Virus record (IMG/VR): IMGVR_UViG_3300043418_000120 | Location: 96,001-160,000 of that record | DNA from: a virus | Reading direction: 5' to 3' (one strand) | DNA: 64,000 bases | Shown here: piece after piece, positions 10,279 through 35,802 of the stretch | Position numbering within the stretch: the first letter of the stretch is position 1 | How the letters are laid out: each line of letters opens with the position of its first letter | Notes under the pieces: model-generated | What the model was told of the DNA's origin: nothing | What the model saw: the letters and a program-made list of their open reading frames with translations, nothing else | Databases searched by the model: none | Position numbers and translations under genes: made by a program

Positions 10279-10873
10279 TTTTAGATGCCTTGTAGATCAA
10301 GTAACAGGACAGATTGTTTGGATGACATTCAATGAATCCGCTGAGGTGCCAATCATTGACCCAACACTAAACTACTATCGCTACAATGGATCAACGAACA
10401 TTAGCGTGTGGAGTGCTTATGCGACTTACGAACTGTTTCTCGACGAAGACGGTAAGACCTTAGTCGTTAAACCTCGTGGTGAGATTGACACACGCATACA
10501 GACTATCAGAGCAAAGTATGTTACAATTGATCTAATCAACGCAATCATCAAGGTTCATTACGAGAGACAGGGATTCCCAGAAGGATCTATCTATCGTAGA
10601 ATTGACACCTCAAGCAAATGGGTTGGTGTTCTTGCTGAGATGCATTCTTGCTCAACTGAGGATGCTGCTACTTTGCTTGACTTTAAGATCTCTGAGTTTA
10701 AGAACACGGAGTTTATGTTAGAGTCGCGCAAGATGATGATGGTTCAGAAGTTGAAAGAAGCTGAGTGTTTCGCGGATGTTGCTGGCGTTTATGCCAAATA
10801 TACATCGTTGTTCTTCAATATAAATAGGAAGGATCTGATGGCGATTGATTCCATCAGAGGCGAACTATTATGA
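10265..10873 (+). CDS. Hypothetical protein
   Basis: ORF overlapping previous gene by 14 nt. Confidence 0.65.
   Translation: MKPYSFRCLVDQVTGQIVWMTFNESAEVPIIDPTLNYYRYNGSTNISVWSAYATYELFLDEDGKTLVVKPRGEIDTRIQTIRAKYVTIDLINAIIKVHYERQGFPEGSIYRRIDTSSKWVGVLAEMHSCSTEDAATLLDFKISEFKNTEFMLESRKMMMVQKLKEAECFADVAGVYAKYTSLFFNINRKDLMAIDSIRGELL
10819..10826 (+). promoter_or_regulatory. T4-type late promoter
   Basis: TATAAATA. Confidence 0.55.
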
Positions 10874-10880
10874 GGATACT

Positions 10881-11027
10881 ATGGCAGAAAACACAAGCGA
10901 ATTACAGGGGACTGATTGGTTCTCTAGATTGAAGAACCCACAGGGTGGTGGTATGGATACCGCTACTGCCGAAGGTGCGCCAAAACCACCAGCGGAGACC
11001 CCAGCAAATGTGGCTCCACAACAATGA
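10881..11027 (+). CDS. 48-aa peptide (MAENTSELQGTDWFSRLKNPQGGG...)
   Basis: GAGGA RBS 5-6 nt upstream; late promoter upstream. Confidence 0.5.
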   Translation: MAENTSELQGTDWFSRLKNPQGGGMDTATAEGAPKPPAETPANVAPQQ

Positions 11028-11397
11028 ACCTTTCGAAGATGCTGGCAAATGGTATGGCTTCATCTACGAAATTACGAATAATCTGACTGGTAAGAAATAC
11101 ATCGGTCGAAAATACTTCACTGAAGCCAAGACTCGTCAAGTCAAAGGCAAGAAGAAACGAACTCGCGTAGAGAGTAATTGGCGTGACTACTGGGGTTCAA
11201 GCAAGTCGCTTACTGAAGACATAGAGAAACATGGTGTTGAGAACTTCTCGAAGAAGATCCTGATGCTATGTGAGACTCGTGGCAATACCAACTATTGGGA
11301 AGCAAAATTCCAATTTGACAATAATGTTCTTTTGAGCGATAATTACTATAATGAATGGATTATGGTTAAAACTCACAGGAAACACATAAAGAAATGA
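11008..11397 (+). CDS. Stand-alone GIY-YIG-like nuclease domain protein
   Basis: GFIYEITNNLTGKKYIGRK...WRDYWGSS. Confidence 0.8.
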   Translation: MWLHNNEPFEDAGKWYGFIYEITNNLTGKKYIGRKYFTEAKTRQVKGKKKRTRVESNWRDYWGSSKSLTEDIEKHGVENFSKKILMLCETRGNTNYWEAKFQFDNNVLLSDNYYNEWIMVKTHRKHIKK

Positions 11398-12605
11398 CAT
11401 ACCTACTATACTCTTGCGGATTCATGTTATCCGCAGTAGCAGCGTATTACTCCGTAATGGGTCTCATTGCTATCTTCTCGACAGCAATCATTCCTATCGC
11501 GATCATGGGTTCGGTTCTGGAAATCAGCAAGCTGGTATCAGCAAGTTGGCTTTACAGAAACTGGAACACAGCACCTAAGATGTTGAAGTACTACTTCACC
11601 GTTGCGGTAACAGTATTGATGCTACTAACATCAATGGGTATCTTCGGATACCTGTCGAAAGCGCACTTGGACCAAGCAGTTCCTACGGGAGATGTTGCGT
11701 CTCAGGTCGCAATTCTCGACGAGAAAATAAAAACAGAAAAGGAAAATATTGATGCAGCTCGTAAAGCACTTACTCAACTGGATTCGCAAGTCGACCAAAC
11801 CATCTCAAGAACCACAGAAGCCAGCGGAGCCGATCGCGCCGTTGCCATCCGTAGAGGACAAGCCAAAGAAAGAGCAAGTCTCCAAGCCGAAATCGCAACC
11901 TCGCAAGCCAAAATCGGCAAGCTCAGAGAAGAACGCGCCCCAATCGCCAGCGAGCTCCGCAAAGTCGAAGCCGAAGTCGGTCCGATCAAATACATCGCAG
12001 CCTTAATTTACGGCGACACCCTTGACGATACGTTACTCGAAAGTGCAGTTCGTATCGTCATCTTGTTGATCATCTTCGTGTTTGATCCACTTGCGGTTCT
12101 GTTGTTAATCGCAGCAAGTCGTGAGTCAATGCTAAAGCATAAGATTGAGGAAGTTGAACCAGAGCCAATCTATGTTGCTGATGTAACAATGCCAGAACCC
12201 GATTATCCTCATGTCTATCCAGACATGAGTGTCTGGAAGGATGTTGTCGAACAGCTAAGTAAAGAACGTGAAGAACCAGAAGTCGAAGTTGAAGCTGCGC
12301 CTATCATTGAGCCACCAATTGAGCAGGTCTTCTTTGAAGCTGCGAAAGAACAGGCTAAAGAGTTAGACGAGACTGCTACCATTGACTGGGAGATTGCTCA
12401 GCCACCAAAAGAAACTCCCGATGAGTTTACTAAGGTTGTTCAAGAGTATTTCCACCCAGAAGACGAAGCTAAGGAAACGATGCTTTATGTGAACGAAGAA
12501 CCTGAACCATCTTTTGTGTTGAACCCTGACTTCAATCAGAAGGATCCGTTCATGGAGAAGCCAAGACCGAAGGTCATGCCCGACTCGAGAACTGAGAATC
12601 GTTAA
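11394..12605 (+). CDS. Multi-TM membrane protein with coiled coil and acidic Pro-rich tail
   Basis: TM segments, LITSMGIFGYLSKAH-like motif, EVGPIKYIA, FVFDPLAV. Confidence 0.75.
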   Translation: MTYLLYSCGFMLSAVAAYYSVMGLIAIFSTAIIPIAIMGSVLEISKLVSASWLYRNWNTAPKMLKYYFTVAVTVLMLLTSMGIFGYLSKAHLDQAVPTGDVASQVAILDEKIKTEKENIDAARKALTQLDSQVDQTISRTTEASGADRAVAIRRGQAKERASLQAEIATSQAKIGKLREERAPIASELRKVEAEVGPIKYIAALIYGDTLDDTLLESAVRIVILLIIFVFDPLAVLLLIAASRESMLKHKIEEVEPEPIYVADVTMPEPDYPHVYPDMSVWKDVVEQLSKEREEPEVEVEAAPIIEPPIEQVFFEAAKEQAKELDETATIDWEIAQPPKETPDEFTKVVQEYFHPEDEAKETMLYVNEEPEPSFVLNPDFNQKDPFMEKPRPKVMPDSRTENR

Positions 12606-26795: not shown

Positions 26796-27098
26796 ATGAA
26801 GAAGTTTCTAGTTTTACTGTTGGTTGGTTTGAGTTTTGCGGCTCAGGCTCAGCATTATCATGGTGATCATTTTCATCGCGGAGCCTACTACAACTGGGCT
26901 GCTCCAGCAATCATTGGTGGTGTTATTGGATACAGTATGGCTCAGCGCCCTACTACTGTAGTTGTCCAACAGCCACCAGTCTACGTTCAACAACAGCCAG
27001 TCTATGTTGATCGTCCAGGTATTCCTTACGGATACCGTTATGAGAATGTATTGGATGCGAACTGTGGCTGCTACCGAGTAGTCCTAGTTCCAAACTAA
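26796..27098 (+). CDS. Secreted/membrane Pro-rich hypothetical protein
   Basis: Signal peptide, APAIIGGVIGY, QQPPVYVQ. Confidence 0.7.
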   Translation: MKKFLVLLLVGLSFAAQAQHYHGDHFHRGAYYNWAAPAIIGGVIGYSMAQRPTTVVVQQPPVYVQQQPVYVDRPGIPYGYRYENVLDANCGCYRVVLVPN

Positions 27099-27403
27099 TT
27101 GTTGTAATCCCTTCAAAGCGAAGGACTTCTGGACGCGGGTTCGACTCCCGCCATCTCCACCACAAGCGCATTGGCGTAGTATGAGTACTCTAAAACTCGA
27201 CTGCGAAAATCTTAGTTCTAGTGTGCTTTTGATGGGGATGCCATGGTTTCGACAGGGGTAGATAGTAGAGACGGCAACACGGTAGGCGATGACCGTTAAT
27301 CAAGCAAATCAAAATAAATGCAAACGAAAGTTCATTTTTGATGGCAGCCTAATCGGCACCATCTGAGTTTCGGTGGGTGTACTTGGAAACAGAAACACCT
27401 ACC
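27099..27403 (+). ncRNA. ssrA: Circularly permuted two-piece tmRNA
   Basis: T arm plus CATCTCC-A-CCA (ends 27162) precedes the 5' strand GGGGATG (27234-27240), with a G3.U70 pair; tag ORF 27320-27352 ANESSFLMAA*; outer ends approximate. Confidence 0.9.
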
Positions 27404-27405
27404 AT

Positions 27406-27413
27406 TATAAATA
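27406..27413 (+). promoter_or_regulatory. T4-type late promoter
   Basis: TATAAATA. Confidence 0.7.
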
Positions 27414-27463
27414 ATTACTTACATCATGAACACACAACTTGATTTACACACACAGGAGTTTAC

Positions 27464-30932: not shown

Positions 30933-31229
30933 ATGATGAATGAAAGACAAACAGAGGTGATGCGAATCGCCCAAGAAGAGTCAGCTGAAATCATCCAAGC
31001 AATCAGTAAGGTTCTGCGTTTCGGTAAAGACAACTGTCATCCAGACAGCACTCAAACGAACGCTGAGCATCTAGCTGAAGAAGTTGGTGACATGCTGTGT
31101 ATGATCGAACTACTGATCGAAACAAAGGTTGTTAGTGAGAGTCAGGTACAGAAGGCTGCGAGGTTGAAGCGCAATAAACTTCGGAAATGGTCAAAAATAT
31201 TTTCCGAAAAAGATGAAAATTGTGCTTGA
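30933..31229 (+). CDS. MazG-like nucleotide pyrophosphohydrolase
   Basis: EESAEIIQAISK...EEVGD. Confidence 0.8.
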   Translation: MMNERQTEVMRIAQEESAEIIQAISKVLRFGKDNCHPDSTQTNAEHLAEEVGDMLCMIELLIETKVVSESQVQKAARLKRNKLRKWSKIFSEKDENCA

Positions 31230-31775: not shown

Positions 31776-31850
31776 GCACGATTCGTCTATCGGTTAGGAC
31801 GCTGCCCTTTCAAGGCGGAAAGACGAGTTCGATTCTCGTATCGTGTACCA
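31776..31850 (+). tRNA. tRNA-Glu(TTC)
   Basis: Cloverleaf, loop CTTTCAA, CCA. Confidence 0.9.
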
Positions 31851-32082
31851 TATTAAAGCGTATTGGGTTACCAATACCAGTAGGTGGCTATGATGGTTCG
31901 AAGATGCTCGACGGAGCACGCTGTCATAGTTACAAGAAAGACGGAAACGCCCTTGCGGTGGAAACAGTAGTCGCGCTGGATTAGGTTGGCTTGTAATGTG
32001 TTTGATGACCAGTCGCTAGACGTTAGCGTGGTAAGCCTACGGTGTAGGTTGTTGTCATTCATCCCAGTATGTTTTAATATGG
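31848..32082 (+). ncRNA. Unknown structured RNA closed by a 20-bp stem
   Basis: CCATATTAAAGCGTATTGGG pairs with CCCAGTATGTTTTAATATGG. Confidence 0.55.
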
Positions 32083-32087
32083 TAAAT

Positions 32088-32163
32088 GCGGGTAAGGTGT
32101 TTATGGATACACACGAGTCTTCCAAACTTGAGTAGACCAGATCGTTACTGGCTACCCGCTCCA
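32088..32163 (+). tRNA. tRNA-Gly(TCC)
   Basis: Loop CTTCCAA; T loop ATCGTTA. Confidence 0.85.
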
Positions 32164-32173
32164 TGTTTTGTAT

Positions 32174-32248
32174 ACCCGATTAGCTCAGAGGTAGAGCACT
32201 CGCTTGATAAGCGATAGGTGAGTGGATCGTTACCACTATCGGGTACCA
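32174..32248 (+). tRNA. tRNA-Ile(GAT)
   Basis: Loop TTGATAA. Confidence 0.88.
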
Positions 32249-32253
32249 TGTTT

Positions 32254-32316
32254 TAGGATAGGTTCTGCAAATAACACTGCTAACTTTGGATGTCTAGCGA
32301 CAAAAACTATCCTGTT
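32254..32316 (+). ncRNA. CWGCAA-scaffold RNA copy 1
   Basis: AGGATAG-GTTCTGCAA...CTATCCT-GTT. Confidence 0.7.
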
Positions 32317-32322
32317 GATTTT

Positions 32323-32407
32323 GGAAGTGTAGGAAAATTGGTAACCCCAGGAGACTGTAAATCTTCCGCCTCTGGCATTGTTGGTTCAAGTCCAACCTCT
32401 TCCACCA
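32323..32407 (+). tRNA. tRNA-Tyr(GTA)
   Basis: Loop CTGTAAA, long variable arm. Confidence 0.88.
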
Positions 32408-32540
32408 ATTTCGCTGTCGAGAGGCAGTGATACGTTCCCAACATTAGGGTTGGGCGTGTTAAAGTTCGGGTCTTCACCAGAAGGTCTTTTCGGTTGCCAC
32501 GATAGAGCAACGGCTAAAGTTCGTAATGCCACAAATTCAT

Positions 32541-32616
32541 GCTTCGTTAGCTCAATTGGGAGAGCACTGCACTGTCACTGCAGAGGTAAGGGGATCGAAA
32601 CCCCTACGAGGCGCCA
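32541..32616 (+). tRNA. tRNA-Asp(GTC)
   Basis: Loop CTGTCAC. Confidence 0.9.
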
Positions 32617-32620
32617 ATTT

Positions 32621-32691
32621 TAGGATGAGTTCTGCAACAAAAATAGAACACCAAACTTTTAATTTGACATGTTCGTCAAAATCATCCTGTT
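32621..32691 (+). ncRNA. CWGCAA-scaffold RNA copy 2 (Lys-UUU anticodon loop)
   Basis: AGGATGA-GTTCTGCAA...CAAA-CTTTTAA-TTTG...TCATCCT-GTT. Confidence 0.7.
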
Positions 32692-32697
32692 GTATTT

Positions 32698-32772
32698 GGG
32701 GGCAGTAGAGGGCTACGGGTAACCCTTGCAAGGTTGCTGTCTAGATCGGTTCGATACCGACGGTCTCCACCA
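32698..32772 (+). tRNA. tRNA-Ala(TGC), atypical D arm
   Basis: Loop CTTGCAA; G3.U70; ACCA. Confidence 0.7.
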
Positions 32773-32859
32773 AGAGCAAATAGAAGTCTTGTTTTGATGC
32801 ATGGCTTCTCAATGTTTGTTAGTTTCAATGGGTGTTATAGAAACTACCACTAATTTTAT

Positions 32860-32934
32860 GCCTTGTTAGCTCAGTGGTAGAGCTCCCTCCTTACAAGTGG
32901 GATGTCGGCGGTTCGAACCCGTCACAAGGTACCA
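32860..32934 (+). tRNA. tRNA-Val(TAC)
   Basis: Loop CTTACAA. Confidence 0.88.
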
Positions 32935-32939
32935 AACAT

Positions 32940-33031
32940 GGAAAGTAATGCAGCTGGGATGGTCCGGCGACCAGCCTTGAAAACTGGGTTCTCAGAAATG
33001 GGATGGGGTTCGACTCCTCTGCTTTCCGCCA
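32940..33031 (+). tRNA. tRNA-Ser(TGA), 8/4 fold
   Basis: Loop CTTGAAA; 8-bp acceptor stem, 4-bp T stem; G73. Confidence 0.8.
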
Positions 33032-33036
33032 AAATT

Positions 33037-33111
33037 GCGTTGTAAACTTTGACGATGAAGTCTCGGCTCTTAACCGATGGGAAGATAGTTTGAATCTATC
33101 ACGACGCACCA
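33037..33111 (+). tRNA. tRNA-Lys(CTT), divergent
   Basis: Loop CTCTTAA; T loop TTTGAAT. Confidence 0.7.
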
Positions 33112-33173
33112 AAGCCTCGCCATGACACTCGGCGTATAATGAGATAAGTGATGTGTTCCGAAGATTACTTTGG

Positions 33174-33248
33174 GGTGGGTATAGTGTAGTGGTAGCACCC
33201 AACTCTGTGAAAGTTGTAGTATGGGATCGTTACCCATTATTCACCCCA
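33174..33248 (+). tRNA. tRNA-His(GTG)
   Basis: Loop CTGTGAA; G-1:C73. Confidence 0.85.
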
Positions 33249-33260
33249 AAGTAATTTTGT

Positions 33261-33336
33261 GCCTCTGTAGTTCAACGGATTAGAATACGGTGCTACGAAC
33301 GCTGAGACGGGAGTTCGATTCTCTCCAGAGGTACCA
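33261..33336 (+). tRNA. tRNA-Arg(ACG)
   Basis: Loop CTACGAA. Confidence 0.9.
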
Positions 33337-33347
33337 AAAAGATTTTC

Positions 33348-33421
33348 GCCCTATTAGTATAATGGCATTACACCTGTTTTGTAATCAGGTTACGGCAGTT
33401 CGATTCTGTCATGGGGCACCA
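33348..33421 (+). tRNA. tRNA-Thr(TGT)
   Basis: Loop TTTGTAA. Confidence 0.85.
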
Positions 33422-33430
33422 GTTGACCAT

Positions 33431-33551
33431 TAGGTTCATTTCAGCAATCAAAAATAATCTTTCTGTAAAAAAGAGGGTCTGGGTTCGAATCCCAGCGGTG
33501 AGTTGGTCTTCACTGTGGTGTAATGGTAGCACGAAAAAAGTTGAACCTGTT
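33431..33551 (+). ncRNA. CWGCAA-scaffold RNA copy 3 (fully permuted tRNA with GUA anticodon)
   Basis: AGGTTCA-TTTCAGCAA, anticodon arm, T arm, closed acceptor stem, D arm, TGAACCT-GTT. Confidence 0.8.
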
Positions 33552-33557
33552 TAACAT

Positions 33558-33632
33558 ATCGCATTCGACTTCAGGTGAGGTCATCAGCCTTTCAAGCTGA
33601 CTAGACGGGATCGTTACCCGTATGCGATACCA
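33558..33632 (+). tRNA. tRNA-Glu(TTC) copy 2
   Basis: Loop CTTTCAA; T loop ATCGTTA. Confidence 0.85.
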
Positions 33633-33640
33633 AGAATTAT

Positions 33641-33719
33641 TCCGTAGAATCCAAGCAAGGTGCAAGGACGTGACTGTTAATCACTGATTAGACTGGTTCG
33701 ATCCCAGTGTACGGAGCCA
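33641..33719 (+). tRNA. tRNA-Asn(GTT), atypical D arm
   Basis: Loop CTGTTAA; GCCA. Confidence 0.75.
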
Positions 33720-33872
33720 GTATTAGTCGGAGTAATTAACCGAAAAGTAAATAGTAGACGATCTCGCCATCTCGGTCGTCTTTGCAGTGTATACTGCGTC
33801 AGCTTGGTTGCACAAGTTGAGAAACACTGGGGTAAGAGTCCCAATTGATCGATGTGCACTAATTGTTTTCGT

Positions 33873-33948
33873 GGGGGTATAGCTCATCTGGTAGAGCAGG
33901 TGCTTTGCAAGCATCAGGTGGCGGGTTCGAGTCCTGTTGCCTCCACCA
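33873..33948 (+). tRNA. tRNA-Ala(TGC)
   Basis: Canonical; loop TTTGCAA. Confidence 0.92.
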
Positions 33949-33957
33949 AGTTTTTAT

Positions 33958-34031
33958 CTGGGTATAAGATAGTGGTAGTCTCCGAGCCTTGGATGCTTGA
34001 AGCGGGAGTTCGATTCTCCATTCCCAGACCA
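33958..34031 (+). tRNA. tRNA-Pro(TGG), divergent
   Basis: Loop CTTGGAT. Confidence 0.75.
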
Positions 34032-34040
34032 ATTTTTTGT

Positions 34041-34118
34041 TGGGGTATCGCCTAGTCTGGCCTAAGGCAACGGTCTTTGAAATCGTCATCATCAGTTCGA
34101 ATCTGATTACCCCTGCCA
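34041..34118 (+). tRNA. tRNA-Gln(TTG)
   Basis: Loop CTTTGAA. Confidence 0.88.
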
Positions 34119-34181
34119 GTTTTTAAGGAAATTCAAAATGAAAGTATTAAAACGAAAACCCCGAAAGTGTCGAAAGCGCAT

Positions 34182-34258
34182 GGGTCTATAGTTTAACGGC
34201 AAAAACATCTGGCTTTTAACCAGTAAGACTCTCGGTTCGAATCCGAGTAGACCCACCA
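34182..34258 (+). tRNA. tRNA-Lys(TTT)
   Basis: Loop CTTTTAA. Confidence 0.88.
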
Positions 34259-34359
34259 TATAAAAACATACTTGCTGAAGTTGGTTCAGTTAGACAGGGA
34301 GATCCAATTGCCTATGTCGTTGAGTGTGTTTTTATATGGTATATAAGTATATACTACAT

Positions 34360-34434
34360 TCCAGTGTAGCACAGCGGTAGTGCAGTTGACTGTTAATCAA
34401 TTGGTCGTTGGTTCGATCCCAGCCACTGGAGCCA
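34360..34434 (+). tRNA. tRNA-Asn(GTT) copy 2
   Basis: Canonical; loop CTGTTAA. Confidence 0.92.
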
Positions 34435-34443
34435 AATTTTTAT

Positions 34444-34517
34444 AGCGGGTAGGGTGGTCACCACTCCAGTCTCATAAGCTCGGAGCATCGGCAGTTCGAA
34501 TCTGTCACCCGCATCCA
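34444..34517 (+). tRNA. tRNA(CAT), atypical, 1-72 mismatch (initiator-like)
   Basis: Loop CTCATAA; A1/A72; reduced D arm. Confidence 0.65.
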
Positions 34518-34521
34518 TTTT

Positions 34522-34580
34522 TAGGATCCGTCCAGCAAATTACCTAATTCAACTTGTAATTGAAAAATAAGGATCCTGTT
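34522..34580 (+). ncRNA. CWGCAA-scaffold RNA copy 4 (Thr-UGU anticodon arm)
   Basis: AGGATCC-GTCCAGCAA...TTCAA-CTTGTAA-TTGAA...GGATCCT-GTT. Confidence 0.75.
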
Positions 34581-34587
34581 GATATTT

Positions 34588-34663
34588 GCCCTTATAGCTC
34601 ATCTGGTAGAGCAACCGCCTTGTAAGCGGTAGGTGGTCAGTTCGAGTCCGACTGAGGGCACCA
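34588..34663 (+). tRNA. tRNA-Thr(TGT) copy 2
   Basis: Loop CTTGTAA. Confidence 0.92.
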
Positions 34664-34671
34664 TTTATAAT

Positions 34672-34748
34672 CGGAATGTAGCGCAGTCTGGTAGCGCACC
34701 TCGTTTGGGACGAGGGGGTCCAAGGTTCGAATCCTTGTATTCCGACCA
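34672..34748 (+). tRNA. tRNA-Pro(TGG) copy 2
   Basis: Canonical; loop TTTGGGA. Confidence 0.93.
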
Positions 34749-34765
34749 ACACTTTGAAAGATAAC

Positions 34766-35029
34766 ATGACAACAATTAACCCTATTAAGAACAACTTGTA
34801 CATTGCTCAGAACAAGAAAGAAGATACCACTGAGATGGGCATCATTATTTCTAATGGTCTTGGTAACACTGCCTCTGCGTATGTGTTGGCTATTGGTCCT
34901 GACATTACAGAATGTAAAGTAGGTGATACAGTTTATGTTGACTGGTCAAAGAGTTACCCAGTAACTATTGACGGTGCGCAGCGTGCGATGATCAAGATTG
35001 ATCATGTGATTGCTGTCGTTGAAGAATAA
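34766..35029 (+). CDS. groES: GroES-like co-chaperonin
   Basis: INPIKNNLYI, TEMGIII mobile loop, VLAIGP...KVGDTV. Confidence 0.8.
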   Translation: MTTINPIKNNLYIAQNKKEDTTEMGIIISNGLGNTASAYVLAIGPDITECKVGDTVYVDWSKSYPVTIDGAQRAMIKIDHVIAVVEE

Positions 35030-35030
35030 T

Positions 35031-35106
35031 CTCGCCATGGTCTAACGGATAAGGCAACGGTCTTCTACACCGTCCGATGGGAGTTCGAATCTCTCTGGCG
35101 AGGCCA
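35031..35106 (+). tRNA. tRNA-Arg(TCT)
   Basis: Loop CTTCTAC. Confidence 0.88.
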
Positions 35107-35113
35107 AAGATTT

Positions 35114-35219
35114 TAGGTTAGGTTCTGCAAACAAAATTAGCTGGTTCGATTCCAGCATTATCCACCCAGTCGAAAGACACTCGGATGATGTGCCACGGTG
35201 GCAATCAAACTAACCTGTT
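35114..35219 (+). ncRNA. CWGCAA-scaffold RNA copy 5 (T arm-acceptor-D-like arm)
   Basis: AGGTTAG-GTTCTGCAA; GCTGG-TTCGATT-CCAGC; ATTATCC/GGATGAT; CTAACCT-GTT. Confidence 0.78.
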
Positions 35220-35228
35220 GTATTATAA

Positions 35229-35305
35229 GCGGATGTGATGGAATTGGTATACGTGTTGGTCTTAGAAGCCAAATTTTGTGAGTTCGAGTCTCACCATCCG
35301 CACCA
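35229..35305 (+). tRNA. tRNA-Leu(TAG), short variable loop
   Basis: Loop CTTAGAA. Confidence 0.85.
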
Positions 35306-35316
35306 ATTTTTTTTAT

Positions 35317-35392
35317 GCCTGGATAGCTCAGTTGGTAGAGCGGCAGATTGAAAATCTGCGCGTCGGCGGTTCGATCCCGTCTCTAGGCACCA
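35317..35392 (+). tRNA. tRNA-Phe(GAA)
   Basis: Loop TTGAAAA. Confidence 0.92.
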
Positions 35393-35398
35393 GTTTAT

Positions 35399-35475
35399 TA
35401 CGGAGTAGTTCCAATTGGCAGAACGGCGGATTCCAAATCCGTTAGTTGGGGGTTCGAGTCCCTCCTCCGTAGCCA
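35399..35475 (+). tRNA. tRNA-Trp(CCA)
   Basis: Loop TTCCAAA. Confidence 0.88.
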
Positions 35476-35481
35476 GATTAT

Positions 35482-35557
35482 GGTGATGTAGCTCAGTTGG
35501 CAGAGCAGCTCCTTCATACGGAGACGGTCGGGAGCTCGGATCTCTCCATCACCACCA
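35482..35557 (+). tRNA. tRNA-Met(CAT)
   Basis: Loop TTCATAC; unusual T loop CTCGGAT. Confidence 0.75.
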
Positions 35558-35717
35558 AGTTTTGAGATAGACGTTTGGATGAGTCCCTTATGTGCTAGTG
35601 CCCTATTCTTGAGCATGACACACCAGTAGCGGCATAAGGTTGTTAAACTCTCCTATACGAGACAAGCCCAGCGAGTCCTTGAGAAAGATAGTTGGAACTC
35701 TCAAAAACCTATAATAT

Positions 35718-35791
35718 GCGTGTGTAGTTTAATGGTAAAATCAGACGTTGCCAACGTTTAGTTGAGAGTTCGATTCTCTCCACCCGCACCA
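35718..35791 (+). tRNA. tRNA-Gly(GCC)
   Basis: Loop TTGCCAA. Confidence 0.85.
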
Positions 35792-35802
35792 AACATAGTC
35801 AT

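Follow-up and report, generated by a model that had tools for sequence, protein, structure and literature searches.

Why would a virus keep isolated anticodon arms in the gaps of its tRNA array? The question is raised by IMG/VR record IMGVR_UViG_3300043418_000120, a 173,880-bp viral record that CheckV rates as complete, and in particular by the 64,000-nt stretch analysed here (positions 96,001-160,000 of the record, hereafter the window). In this stretch copies of a small RNA element, numbered 1 to 8, occupy gaps in a tRNA array at 31776-38091 and the region in front of a gene for a Ro60-like protein. All coordinates are window positions, and the elements and the Ro-like gene lie on the + strand throughout. 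An earlier note on this DNA had proposed that the RNAs form a modular panel of anticodon baits for tRNA-targeting defence nucleases. Comparison with related phages makes it very likely, in our view, that they are partner RNAs of the Ro-like protein that mimic anticodon arms. The best overall explanation, to which we assign a probability of about 0.38, is that they are Y-like RNAs which sit on a Ro60-like protein and display anticodon arms as nuclease bait. In the literature on DUF2828, phage YrlA and phage anticodon-nuclease decoys we found no published description of these RNAs.

A constant handle with interchangeable cargo

The elements are closed by a handle, which consists of a 7-bp helix pairing both ends, an unpaired GUUCAGCAA just inside this helix, and a GUUG tail at the 3' end. 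In the DNA, (G)TTC(A/T)GCAA and then an A-rich linker come after the 5' arm, and GTTG comes after the 3' arm. The arms of the end helix differ among the copies and remain complementary (AGGATAG/CTATCCT, AGGATGA/TCATCCT, AGGTTCA/TGAACCT and AGGATCC/GGATCCT). A pattern scan for a 7-nt arm, the motif, a complementary 7-nt arm and then GT identified seven handles on the + strand of the window, starting at 32255, 32622, 33432, 34523, 35115, 37267 and 40643, and none on the - strand; scanning the rest of the 173,880-bp genome gave no further AGG-type handle.

Using the Ro-like protein as query, we retrieved 80 related viral contigs (protein identity 57-88%). On the gene strand of these contigs, 215 of 769 motif matches have a 7-bp partner followed by GT, compared with 9 of 798 on the opposite strand, and with 10 of 769 on the gene strand when the letters of the 5' arm are shuffled. 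The end helix occurs as 43 distinct stem pairs, in which changes in one arm are compensated in the other, next to a near-invariant CAGCAA motif. Although the Ro-like proteins of these contigs share only 57-88% identity, both the handle and the 5-bp/7-nt geometry of the anticodon-like arms described below are conserved from contig to contig. The modular panel of the earlier note is borne out by the 80 contigs, as one constant handle with interchangeable cargo, and the comparison gives good support to the view that the elements are small non-coding RNAs forming a Y-RNA-like family.

The elements also keep a fixed register between tRNA genes, with the upstream tRNA ending 5-6 nt before the handle in 65 of 77 tRNA-flanked cases and the downstream tRNA starting 9-11 nt past the element in 58 of 68 cases. 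This register suggests that ordinary tRNA end processing would release the elements. The position of the Thr display of copy 4 beside tRNA-Thr, to which the earlier note had pointed, does not reflect a rule: only 6 of 57 displays have a neighbour with the same anticodon, and a general placement beside the cognate tRNA was rejected.

Anticodon arms in the window

The cargo of copy 4 (34519..34587, between tRNA-Met and tRNA-Thr; handle AGGATCC/GGATCCT with GTCCAGCAA) is a bare Thr UGU arm, made up of TTCAA (34548-34552), the loop CTTGTAA (34553-34559) and TTGAA (34560-34564). Copy 2 (32618..32697, between tRNA-Asp and an atypical tRNA-Ala; handle AGGATGA/TCATCCT with GTTCTGCAA) presents a Lys UUU loop, CTTTTAA (32656-32662), between CAAA (32652-32655) and TTTG (32663-32666), and its arm is longer than that of a tRNA, since the 4-bp stem is stacked on a second, outer helix, GAACA/TGTTC. 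In copy 3 (33428..33557; handle AGGTTCA/TGAACCT with TTTCAGCAA) the arm TCTTT-CTGTAAA-AAAGA (Tyr GUA, 33458-33474) stands directly 5' of a T arm (33479-33495), followed by a sealed acceptor helix and a D arm, an order that makes the cargo a complete circularly permuted tRNA mimic. The stem of this arm can also pair in a shifted register, and the anticodon register leaves a tRNA-like 4-nt variable loop.

The hairpins that the earlier note had read in copies 1-4 are all present where it placed them. The loops of copies 2, 4 and 3 are, as it had said, the same as those of tRNA-Lys(UUU) at 34182, tRNA-Thr(UGU) at 34588 and tRNA-Tyr(GUA) at 32323, with 7 of 7 nucleotides identical in each case. Copies 3 and 4 have all the features by which we recognised an anticodon arm (5-bp stem, 7-nt loop, U33, purine at position 37, real anticodon), copy 2 has 4 bp plus the outer helix, and copy 1 does not qualify. 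The A/U-rich arms of copies 2 and 4 were missed when single copies were folded by minimum free energy, so that we relied on comparative evidence.

Copy 1 (32251..32322) fills the gap between tRNA-Ile and tRNA-Tyr. Its handle comprises AGGATAG (32255-32261), GTTCTGCAA (32262-32270), CTATCCT (32307-32313) and the GTTG tail, and its cargo is a bulged hairpin, GCTAAC-TTTGGAT-GTCTAGC (32279-32298), with a bulged C and the loop TTTGGAT at 32285-32291. Nine distinct relatives keep the bulged stem and have loops of 6, 7, 8 or 9 nt, so that copy 1 is not a clean or canonical anticodon arm, and the Pro-UGG reading that had been offered for it is not supported.

Copy 5 (35111..35228) has the same handle and a YrlA-like cargo with a T arm, a closed helix and a D-like hairpin, without an anticodon arm, and the cargo of copy 6 (37263..37496), again with this handle, comprises a T arm, an acceptor helix that is long and extended and contains an insert, and a D arm. 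The divergent copy 7 lies near 40307 (about 40300-40585) behind a second promoter, and copy 8 (40639..40815; AGGATAG/CTATCCT, GTTCAGCAA and GTTG) has its own promoter and is directly 5' of the Ro-like gene.

Loop frame and triplets in related phages

The short class, which comprises the elements of at most 70 nt in the window and the 80 related contigs, numbers 102 elements with 82 distinct sequences. The earlier note had looked to a tabulation of loops in homologues for an excess of 7-nt YU-NNN-RN loops, and this tabulation was strongly positive, the loops being far from random. Compared with 300 dinucleotide-preserving shuffles of the 82 distinct short cargos, the best hairpin has a 7-nt loop in 43 of 82 (shuffle mean 7.0, maximum 14), a YU-NNN-RN loop in 38 of 82 (mean 0.48, maximum 4) and a CU-NNN-AA loop in 37 of 82 (mean 0.20, maximum 3). 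CU-NNN-AA is likewise the commonest loop frame of the phages' real tRNAs (648/1290).

The 53 distinct short elements with an anticodon-like arm were taken as the display set. Of the stems, 46 have 5 bp and 7 have 4 bp; A occupies position 37 in 52, and position 34 is U in 33, G in 19, C in 1 and A in none, in cargos that are 50% A. The loops hold C32, U33, A37 and A38 constant and vary in the triplet, with UGU found 20 times, UUU 8, GUU and GGA 7 each, UCU and GAA 3 each, UGG twice, and CUU, GUC and GCA once each. UAU and CAU were found in loops with an unpaired 31-39 position, and the larger tRNA-like cargos carry GUA, UAG, UAU, UCU, GCA and AAU. The clearly displayed triplets are all also anticodons of these phages' tRNA genes.

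The linkers are of low complexity and rich in A, which defeated a clustering of the short elements by linker similarity; scaffold families were defined instead by linker signatures, and the triplets of orthologues were compared within families. UGU is present in 6 of 6 distinct members of the copy 4 family and in 14 of 15 members of a second family, and one scaffold family switches its triplet between GUU, GGA, UAU, GAA, GUC, GCA and UUU. Orthologues of copy 2 have CUUUUAA, CUCUUAA (Lys CUU) or CAAU-CUGUUAA-AUUG (Asn GUU, with the compensated stem CAAU/AUUG). The only orthologue of copy 3 that was found (contig L014, 2331-2446, against window 33432-33548) has CUUAGAA (Leu UAG) in the same frame: UAG replaces GUA, acceptor-helix pairs are compensated, and the T and D arms are nearly identical. 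If the identity of the anticodon matters, one would expect just this, a fixed loop frame whose triplet is kept in some cases and exchanged in others; decaying tRNA fragments would not be expected to show such a pattern. An origin of the arms as recent copies of phage tRNA genes was mostly rejected, with stem identities of 4-8 out of 10, and two arm types are near copies of phage tRNA arms (15/17). The stems of the arms are A/U-only, compared with 60% GC in the phage tRNAs.

A Ro60-like protein linked to the RNAs

The gene at 40854..42293 (+ strand) encodes a protein of 479 aa, with Pfam DUF2828 and DUF7788 and a match to PHROG 850 ('RNA-binding protein'). A helical ring is combined in it with a vWA domain whose metal ion-dependent adhesion site (D281-x-S283-x-S285) is intact; D281, S283 and S285 are invariant in 24 homologues. 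An AlphaFold model was obtained with a mean predicted local distance difference test score of 73.8, and a Foldseek search against the PDB gave 13 best matches that are all Ro60/TROVE proteins (E 6e-8 to 4e-5, full length, >500 aligned columns, template-modelling score about 0.5), including phage phiLo 9kop, Xenopus 1yvr, Deinococcus 2nvo and 9l5y; no structures of another kind matched from end to end. According to this model, the protein has the Ro60 architecture. Ro60 is found by the fold search alone, as a PDB sequence search with the same protein gave no Ro60 match and Pfam assigns DUF2828 and DUF7788 only, not TROVE. Homology to the mycobacteriophage 'Ro-like RNA binding protein' is remote; both are members of one family, which is found in 711 phage records, those of mycobacteriophages among them.

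The RNA family is linked to this protein by copy 8, which adjoins the gene and ends 38 nt before its open reading frame (ORF); copies 7 and 8 are both directly 5' of the gene, and a handle copy is in this position in many relatives too. In contig L040 the order is promoter, YrlA-like handle RNA, Ser-GGA arm RNA and Ro-like gene. Since the linked DUF2828 protein folds like Ro60, we regard the elements as Y-RNA-like partners of the tRNA-mimicking YrlA kind, and this DUF2828/vWA protein of the phage probably docks on the handle. We place the system with the Ro60/Y RNA kind, as a variant; the structural side of the proposal is solid, and the decoy function is an attractive hypothesis. Three non-coding regions with very high transcription are located within 2 kb of an Rsr-like gene in a P100-like Listeria phage (PMC12282133), and the P100-type tblastn matches suggest that this gene is a homologue of the Ro-like gene.

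A related arrangement is observed in Escherichia phage VpaE1 (contig L082, Felix O1-type), where at 10719-11495 the Ro-like gene heads a tRNA array, and four unannotated handle RNAs (AGACCnn-UUACAGCAA...nnGGUCU-GG) lie in the gaps between annotated tRNAs. One of them is a permuted tRNA mimic with a CGGUAAA loop.

What the arms may bind

In the mechanism that we propose, 3' trimming of the upstream tRNA and RNase P cleavage at the downstream tRNA would free RNAs of ~60-130 nt, whose handle would dock on the phage Ro60-like DUF2828/vWA protein. The cargo would be tRNA-derived, as a bare arm in copies 2 (Lys UUU) and 4 (Thr UGU) and as a permuted tRNA mimic with a Tyr GUA arm in copy 3; selection would keep the arms authentic, and the arms would bait proteins that recognise anticodon arms. 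Without a free acceptor end or CCA the elements cannot be charged, and therefore they could act by binding only, the candidate binders of the arm being tRNA-cleaving defence nucleases, anticodon-loop modification enzymes, synthetases and the ribosome. That the arms serve as bait for anticodon-reading proteins of some kind seems to us rather probable. The likeliest targets would be tRNA-cleaving defence nucleases of the PARIS/AriB, PrrC/RloC or PtuAB kind, which the ribonucleoprotein would bind and titrate, sparing host and phage tRNAs; the specific role of nuclease decoy is put forward tentatively.

A nuclease target is favoured by the choice of triplets. Of the 53 displays, 35 have UGU, UUU or GUU, compared with 123 of 1290 tRNA genes (9.5%), and the tRNAs with these three anticodons are the three main targets of PARIS AriB, with U36-A-A-U39 in common (PMC12409363), a motif present in 36 of the 53 displays. 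This overlap is circumstantial and amounts to one coincidence. The AriB cut falls in the anticodon stem, between positions 40 and 41, and not in the anticodon loop as the earlier note had it. The target of retron Ec78 PtuAB is tRNA-Tyr (PMC11555353), phage tRNAs are a proven route around both PARIS and retron Ec78 (PMC12409363; PMC11555353), and YrlA's tRNA-like domain has been proposed by Hughes et al. 2020 to inhibit an anticodon nuclease by competition (PMC7790460). Cleavage of tRNA is a bacterial defence that has lately turned out to be common, found in PARIS, retron Ec78 PtuAB, PrrC, OLD, Schlafen-type and CRISPR-linked nucleases, and the known answer of phages is to carry resistant tRNAs. 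Arm-only RNA decoys on a Ro60-like protein, if this is what the elements are, would be a second answer and a new anti-defence class, and they would provide a concrete role for the tRNA mimicry of Y RNAs, unexplained since 2014.

Several observations speak against decoys of this kind. AriB also requires U16 of the D-loop and other distal contacts, and a bare arm lacking the D-loop contacts may bind it weakly. A decoy has to compete with thousands of cellular tRNAs, and the established route of escape, tRNA genes for these anticodons, is already present in the phage. No nuclease is known for the arms that display Ser GGA, Phe GAA and Cys GCA. Since the displays share a common descent, their independence is overstated by the counts given above. 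Copies 1-6 are 3-8 kb from the protein gene and are linked to it via the shared handle only, and no clean anticodon arm was seen in the short elements of a Felix O1-type phage that encodes the same protein and has a related handle.

The proteins bound could belong instead to tRNA housekeeping, with the arms baiting or tethering anticodon-reading synthetases or the machinery that makes N6-threonylcarbamoyladenosine (t6A) or N6-isopentenyladenosine (i6A) at position 37, these enzymes being either sequestered or brought to the Ro-like particle to favour phage tRNAs. U36-A37 and A36-A37 are the contexts that receive t6A or i6A in bacteria, and U36 or A36 followed by A37 is found in 50 of 53 displays. 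Salmonella YrlA is, moreover, a substrate of tRNA modification enzymes (PMC4201824). A bait for t6A or i6A enzymes needs the 36-37 context only and no set triplet, yet UGU is invariant in two families, and the common t6A anticodons GAU (39 genes), GCU (41) and GGU (35) are never displayed in the short class. Ser GGA appears in 7 displays, although the anticodon is not what seryl-tRNA synthetase reads; on balance we consider a housekeeping target unlikely. We also think it improbable, to a similar degree, that the RNAs belong to a tRNA quality-control or decay particle, in which the handle RNA gates or tethers the ring protein as in Ro60-Y RNA-polynucleotide phosphorylase (PNPase), and the tRNA-like cargo, bare arms included, governs how damaged or misfolded tRNAs reach the ring or recruits an exonuclease or ligase. 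Such a particle is in keeping with the protein's Ro60 fold, with the tethering of Rsr to PNPase by Y RNAs and the binding of phage phiLo Ro60 and Yrl RNAs to host PNPase (PMC12135203), with the location of the elements in a tRNA array beside phosphoesterase and phosphatase-like genes, and with the Rnl2-type RNA ligase encoded in the genome. No RtcB or T4 Rnl1 was found in the genome, and the known PNPase tethering by Y RNAs uses no anticodon-like loops. A decay particle also gives no reason for keeping the anticodon in some families and exchanging it inside a fixed frame in others.

The U-turn signature of the loop could serve RNA-RNA or ribosome contacts, by offering 3-5 bases for fast pairing, like antisense YUNR loops, or by letting the arm enter an empty A site at hungry Lys, Thr or Asn codons and sense or relieve stalling. 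Isolated anticodon arms bind ribosomal sites in a codon-dependent manner, and the phage encodes a transfer-messenger RNA (tmRNA) at 27038-27443. The constant flanks C32, U33, A37 and A38 indicate tRNA mimicry and not tailored antisense pairing, and in the absence of the ribosome three base pairs give little specificity; contacts of this sort are, in our judgement, very improbable. We give still less credence to inert leftovers, whether decayed tRNA fragments or hairpins that guide RNase cleavage of the array transcript. The fixed register between tRNAs and the series of cargos from a whole tRNA mimic to a bare arm are compatible with leftovers, which would not account for a handle and a 5-bp/7-nt geometry conserved among contigs with 57-88% identical Ro-like proteins, for the compensatory stem changes and the avoidance of A34, or for the promoter-driven copies before the protein gene, outside the array.

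Comparison with known RNA systems

Orthologues of Ro60 work with Y RNAs, and the bacterial YrlA class carries a tRNA-like domain for a purpose that is unexplained (PMC4201824). The phage locus shares with YrlA (RF02553; Chen et al. 2014, PMC4201824) and with the phiLo Ro60 and its Yrl1/Yrl2 (PMC12135203) a ring protein, with Ro60 fold and vWA domain, beside small RNAs. Like Y RNAs, the elements have an end helix with a conserved motif and several RNA genes per locus, and by inspection and folding copies 3, 5 and 6 contain the tRNA-mimic module of YrlA (T arm, sealed acceptor helix, D arm). In contrast, the phage protein is a DUF2828/DUF7788 and not a TROVE protein, with a match in fold only, and the handle, with GUUCAGCAA and the GUUG tail, is unlike the Y RNA site. 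YrlA has no anticodon arm, whereas this arm is the sole cargo of copies 2 and 4, in which the YrlA tRNA-like domain is absent. Unlike known Y RNAs, most of the phage copies are embedded in a tRNA array. No window copy was matched by RF02553 at E<=10, the window matches falling on tRNA pairs, and the best RF02553 score on a handle element was 37.5 bits (in L040), below the gathering score of 69.

The handle also resembles the Class I RNAs of Dictyostelium, which are ~60 nt long and have a terminal stem that covaries, beside its 5' arm the 11-nt motif CCUUACAGCAA, a variable interior and conserved AAG/CUGU termini (RF01414; Kjellin et al. 2021, PMC7919456). The handle RNAs are similar in their length of ~55-65 nt and in their short covarying 5'/3' stem, and in both groups the 5' arm leads straight into a conserved unpaired motif with CAGCAA at its end, the interior varies and there are many copies per genome; the termini are AAG...CUGU in Class I RNAs and (U)AGG...CCU-GUUG in the phage. 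The full RF01414 model matches copy 4 at 34524-34578 of the window with 23.5 bits and relatives with 35.8, 35.1 and 23.3 bits (full-length matches at L067:900-956, L076:1818-1871 and L040:904-959), all below the gathering score of 41.5. Class I RNAs differ in that they are eukaryotic, have a DUSE promoter of their own and, according to reports, occur only in Dictyostelia, where their partner is an RNA recognition motif (RRM) protein; no anticodon-like cargo has been described for them. The matches, which have the terminal stem, the CAGCAA motif and the CUG end in common, hint at viral relatives of a class reported to be confined to social amoebae. The likeness may reflect homology or convergence, and it could offer this orphan class a candidate protein partner. 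A more far-reaching version of the decoy proposal, which we hold to be doubtful, would combine these threads: the Ro60-like ring protein with its swappable panel of bare arms would be an RNA sponge against PARIS AriB-type nucleases, its triplets would track the nucleases of local hosts, and its handle would be ancestral or related to Class I RNAs, themselves Y-like DUF2828 partners.

Phage escape tRNAs, namely T5 tRNA-Lys/Thr/Asn against PARIS (PMC12409363, PMC11464382) and T5 tRNA-Tyr against retron Ec78 PtuAB (PMC11555353), have in common with the elements the Lys UUU, Thr UGU, Asn GUU and Tyr GUA anticodons and the location in a phage tRNA array. They are functional, nuclease-resistant replacements, whereas the elements, with no free acceptor end or CCA, are unchargeable. 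The constant handle with its swappable triplets might become a tool to inhibit or identify anticodon-reading enzymes, and the same property makes the design directly testable. A natural precedent for an arm that binds a tRNA-reading protein is the operator of E. coli thrS, an anticodon-arm mimic in the mRNA leader that is bound by threonyl-tRNA synthetase. Like the phage arms it is an isolated hairpin copying an anticodon arm; it differs in being a cis translational operator for one synthetase, whereas the phage has a panel of trans RNAs on a shared protein-binding handle.

Other features of the locus

At gathering thresholds, Rfam identified only tRNAs and the tmRNA in the window. The latter scores 146 bits with the permuted tmRNA model and 140 bits with the beta-proteobacterial tmRNA model, and its tag peptide is given by ARAGORN as ANESSFLMAA. 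Three atypical tRNAs, Ala UGC (32698-32772), Ser UGA (32945-33031) and Asn GUU (33641-33719), were found by ARAGORN with a relaxed threshold only and are missed by its default settings, and a tRNA-like stretch at ~33033-33112 has a CUCUUAA (Lys CUU) loop and no tRNA call.

A promoter-like unit, GCTTGAC-N17-TATAAT, occurs at 31224, 31506, 31605, 31707, 35822, 40262 and 40590, with three tandem copies heading the tRNA array and one copy preceding each of the two handle RNAs before the Ro-like gene. Inside the array there are ORFs for a Cpn10/GroES-like protein (34754-35029), a dual-specificity-phosphatase-like protein (35859-36359) and a calcineurin-like phosphoesterase (PHROG 547; 36307-36936), and the phosphatase-like and phosphoesterase products could act on RNA ends. 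The 495-aa B12-binding radical S-adenosylmethionine (SAM) protein encoded at 38769-40256 has no PHROG match; a role as an Elp3/MiaB-type anticodon modifier was rejected, as it matches B12-binding radical SAM methyltransferase-like families. The other ORFs flanking the Ro-like gene encode an RNase H-like protein (PF04308; 38105-38596) and a PhyH-type dioxygenase (42788-43585).

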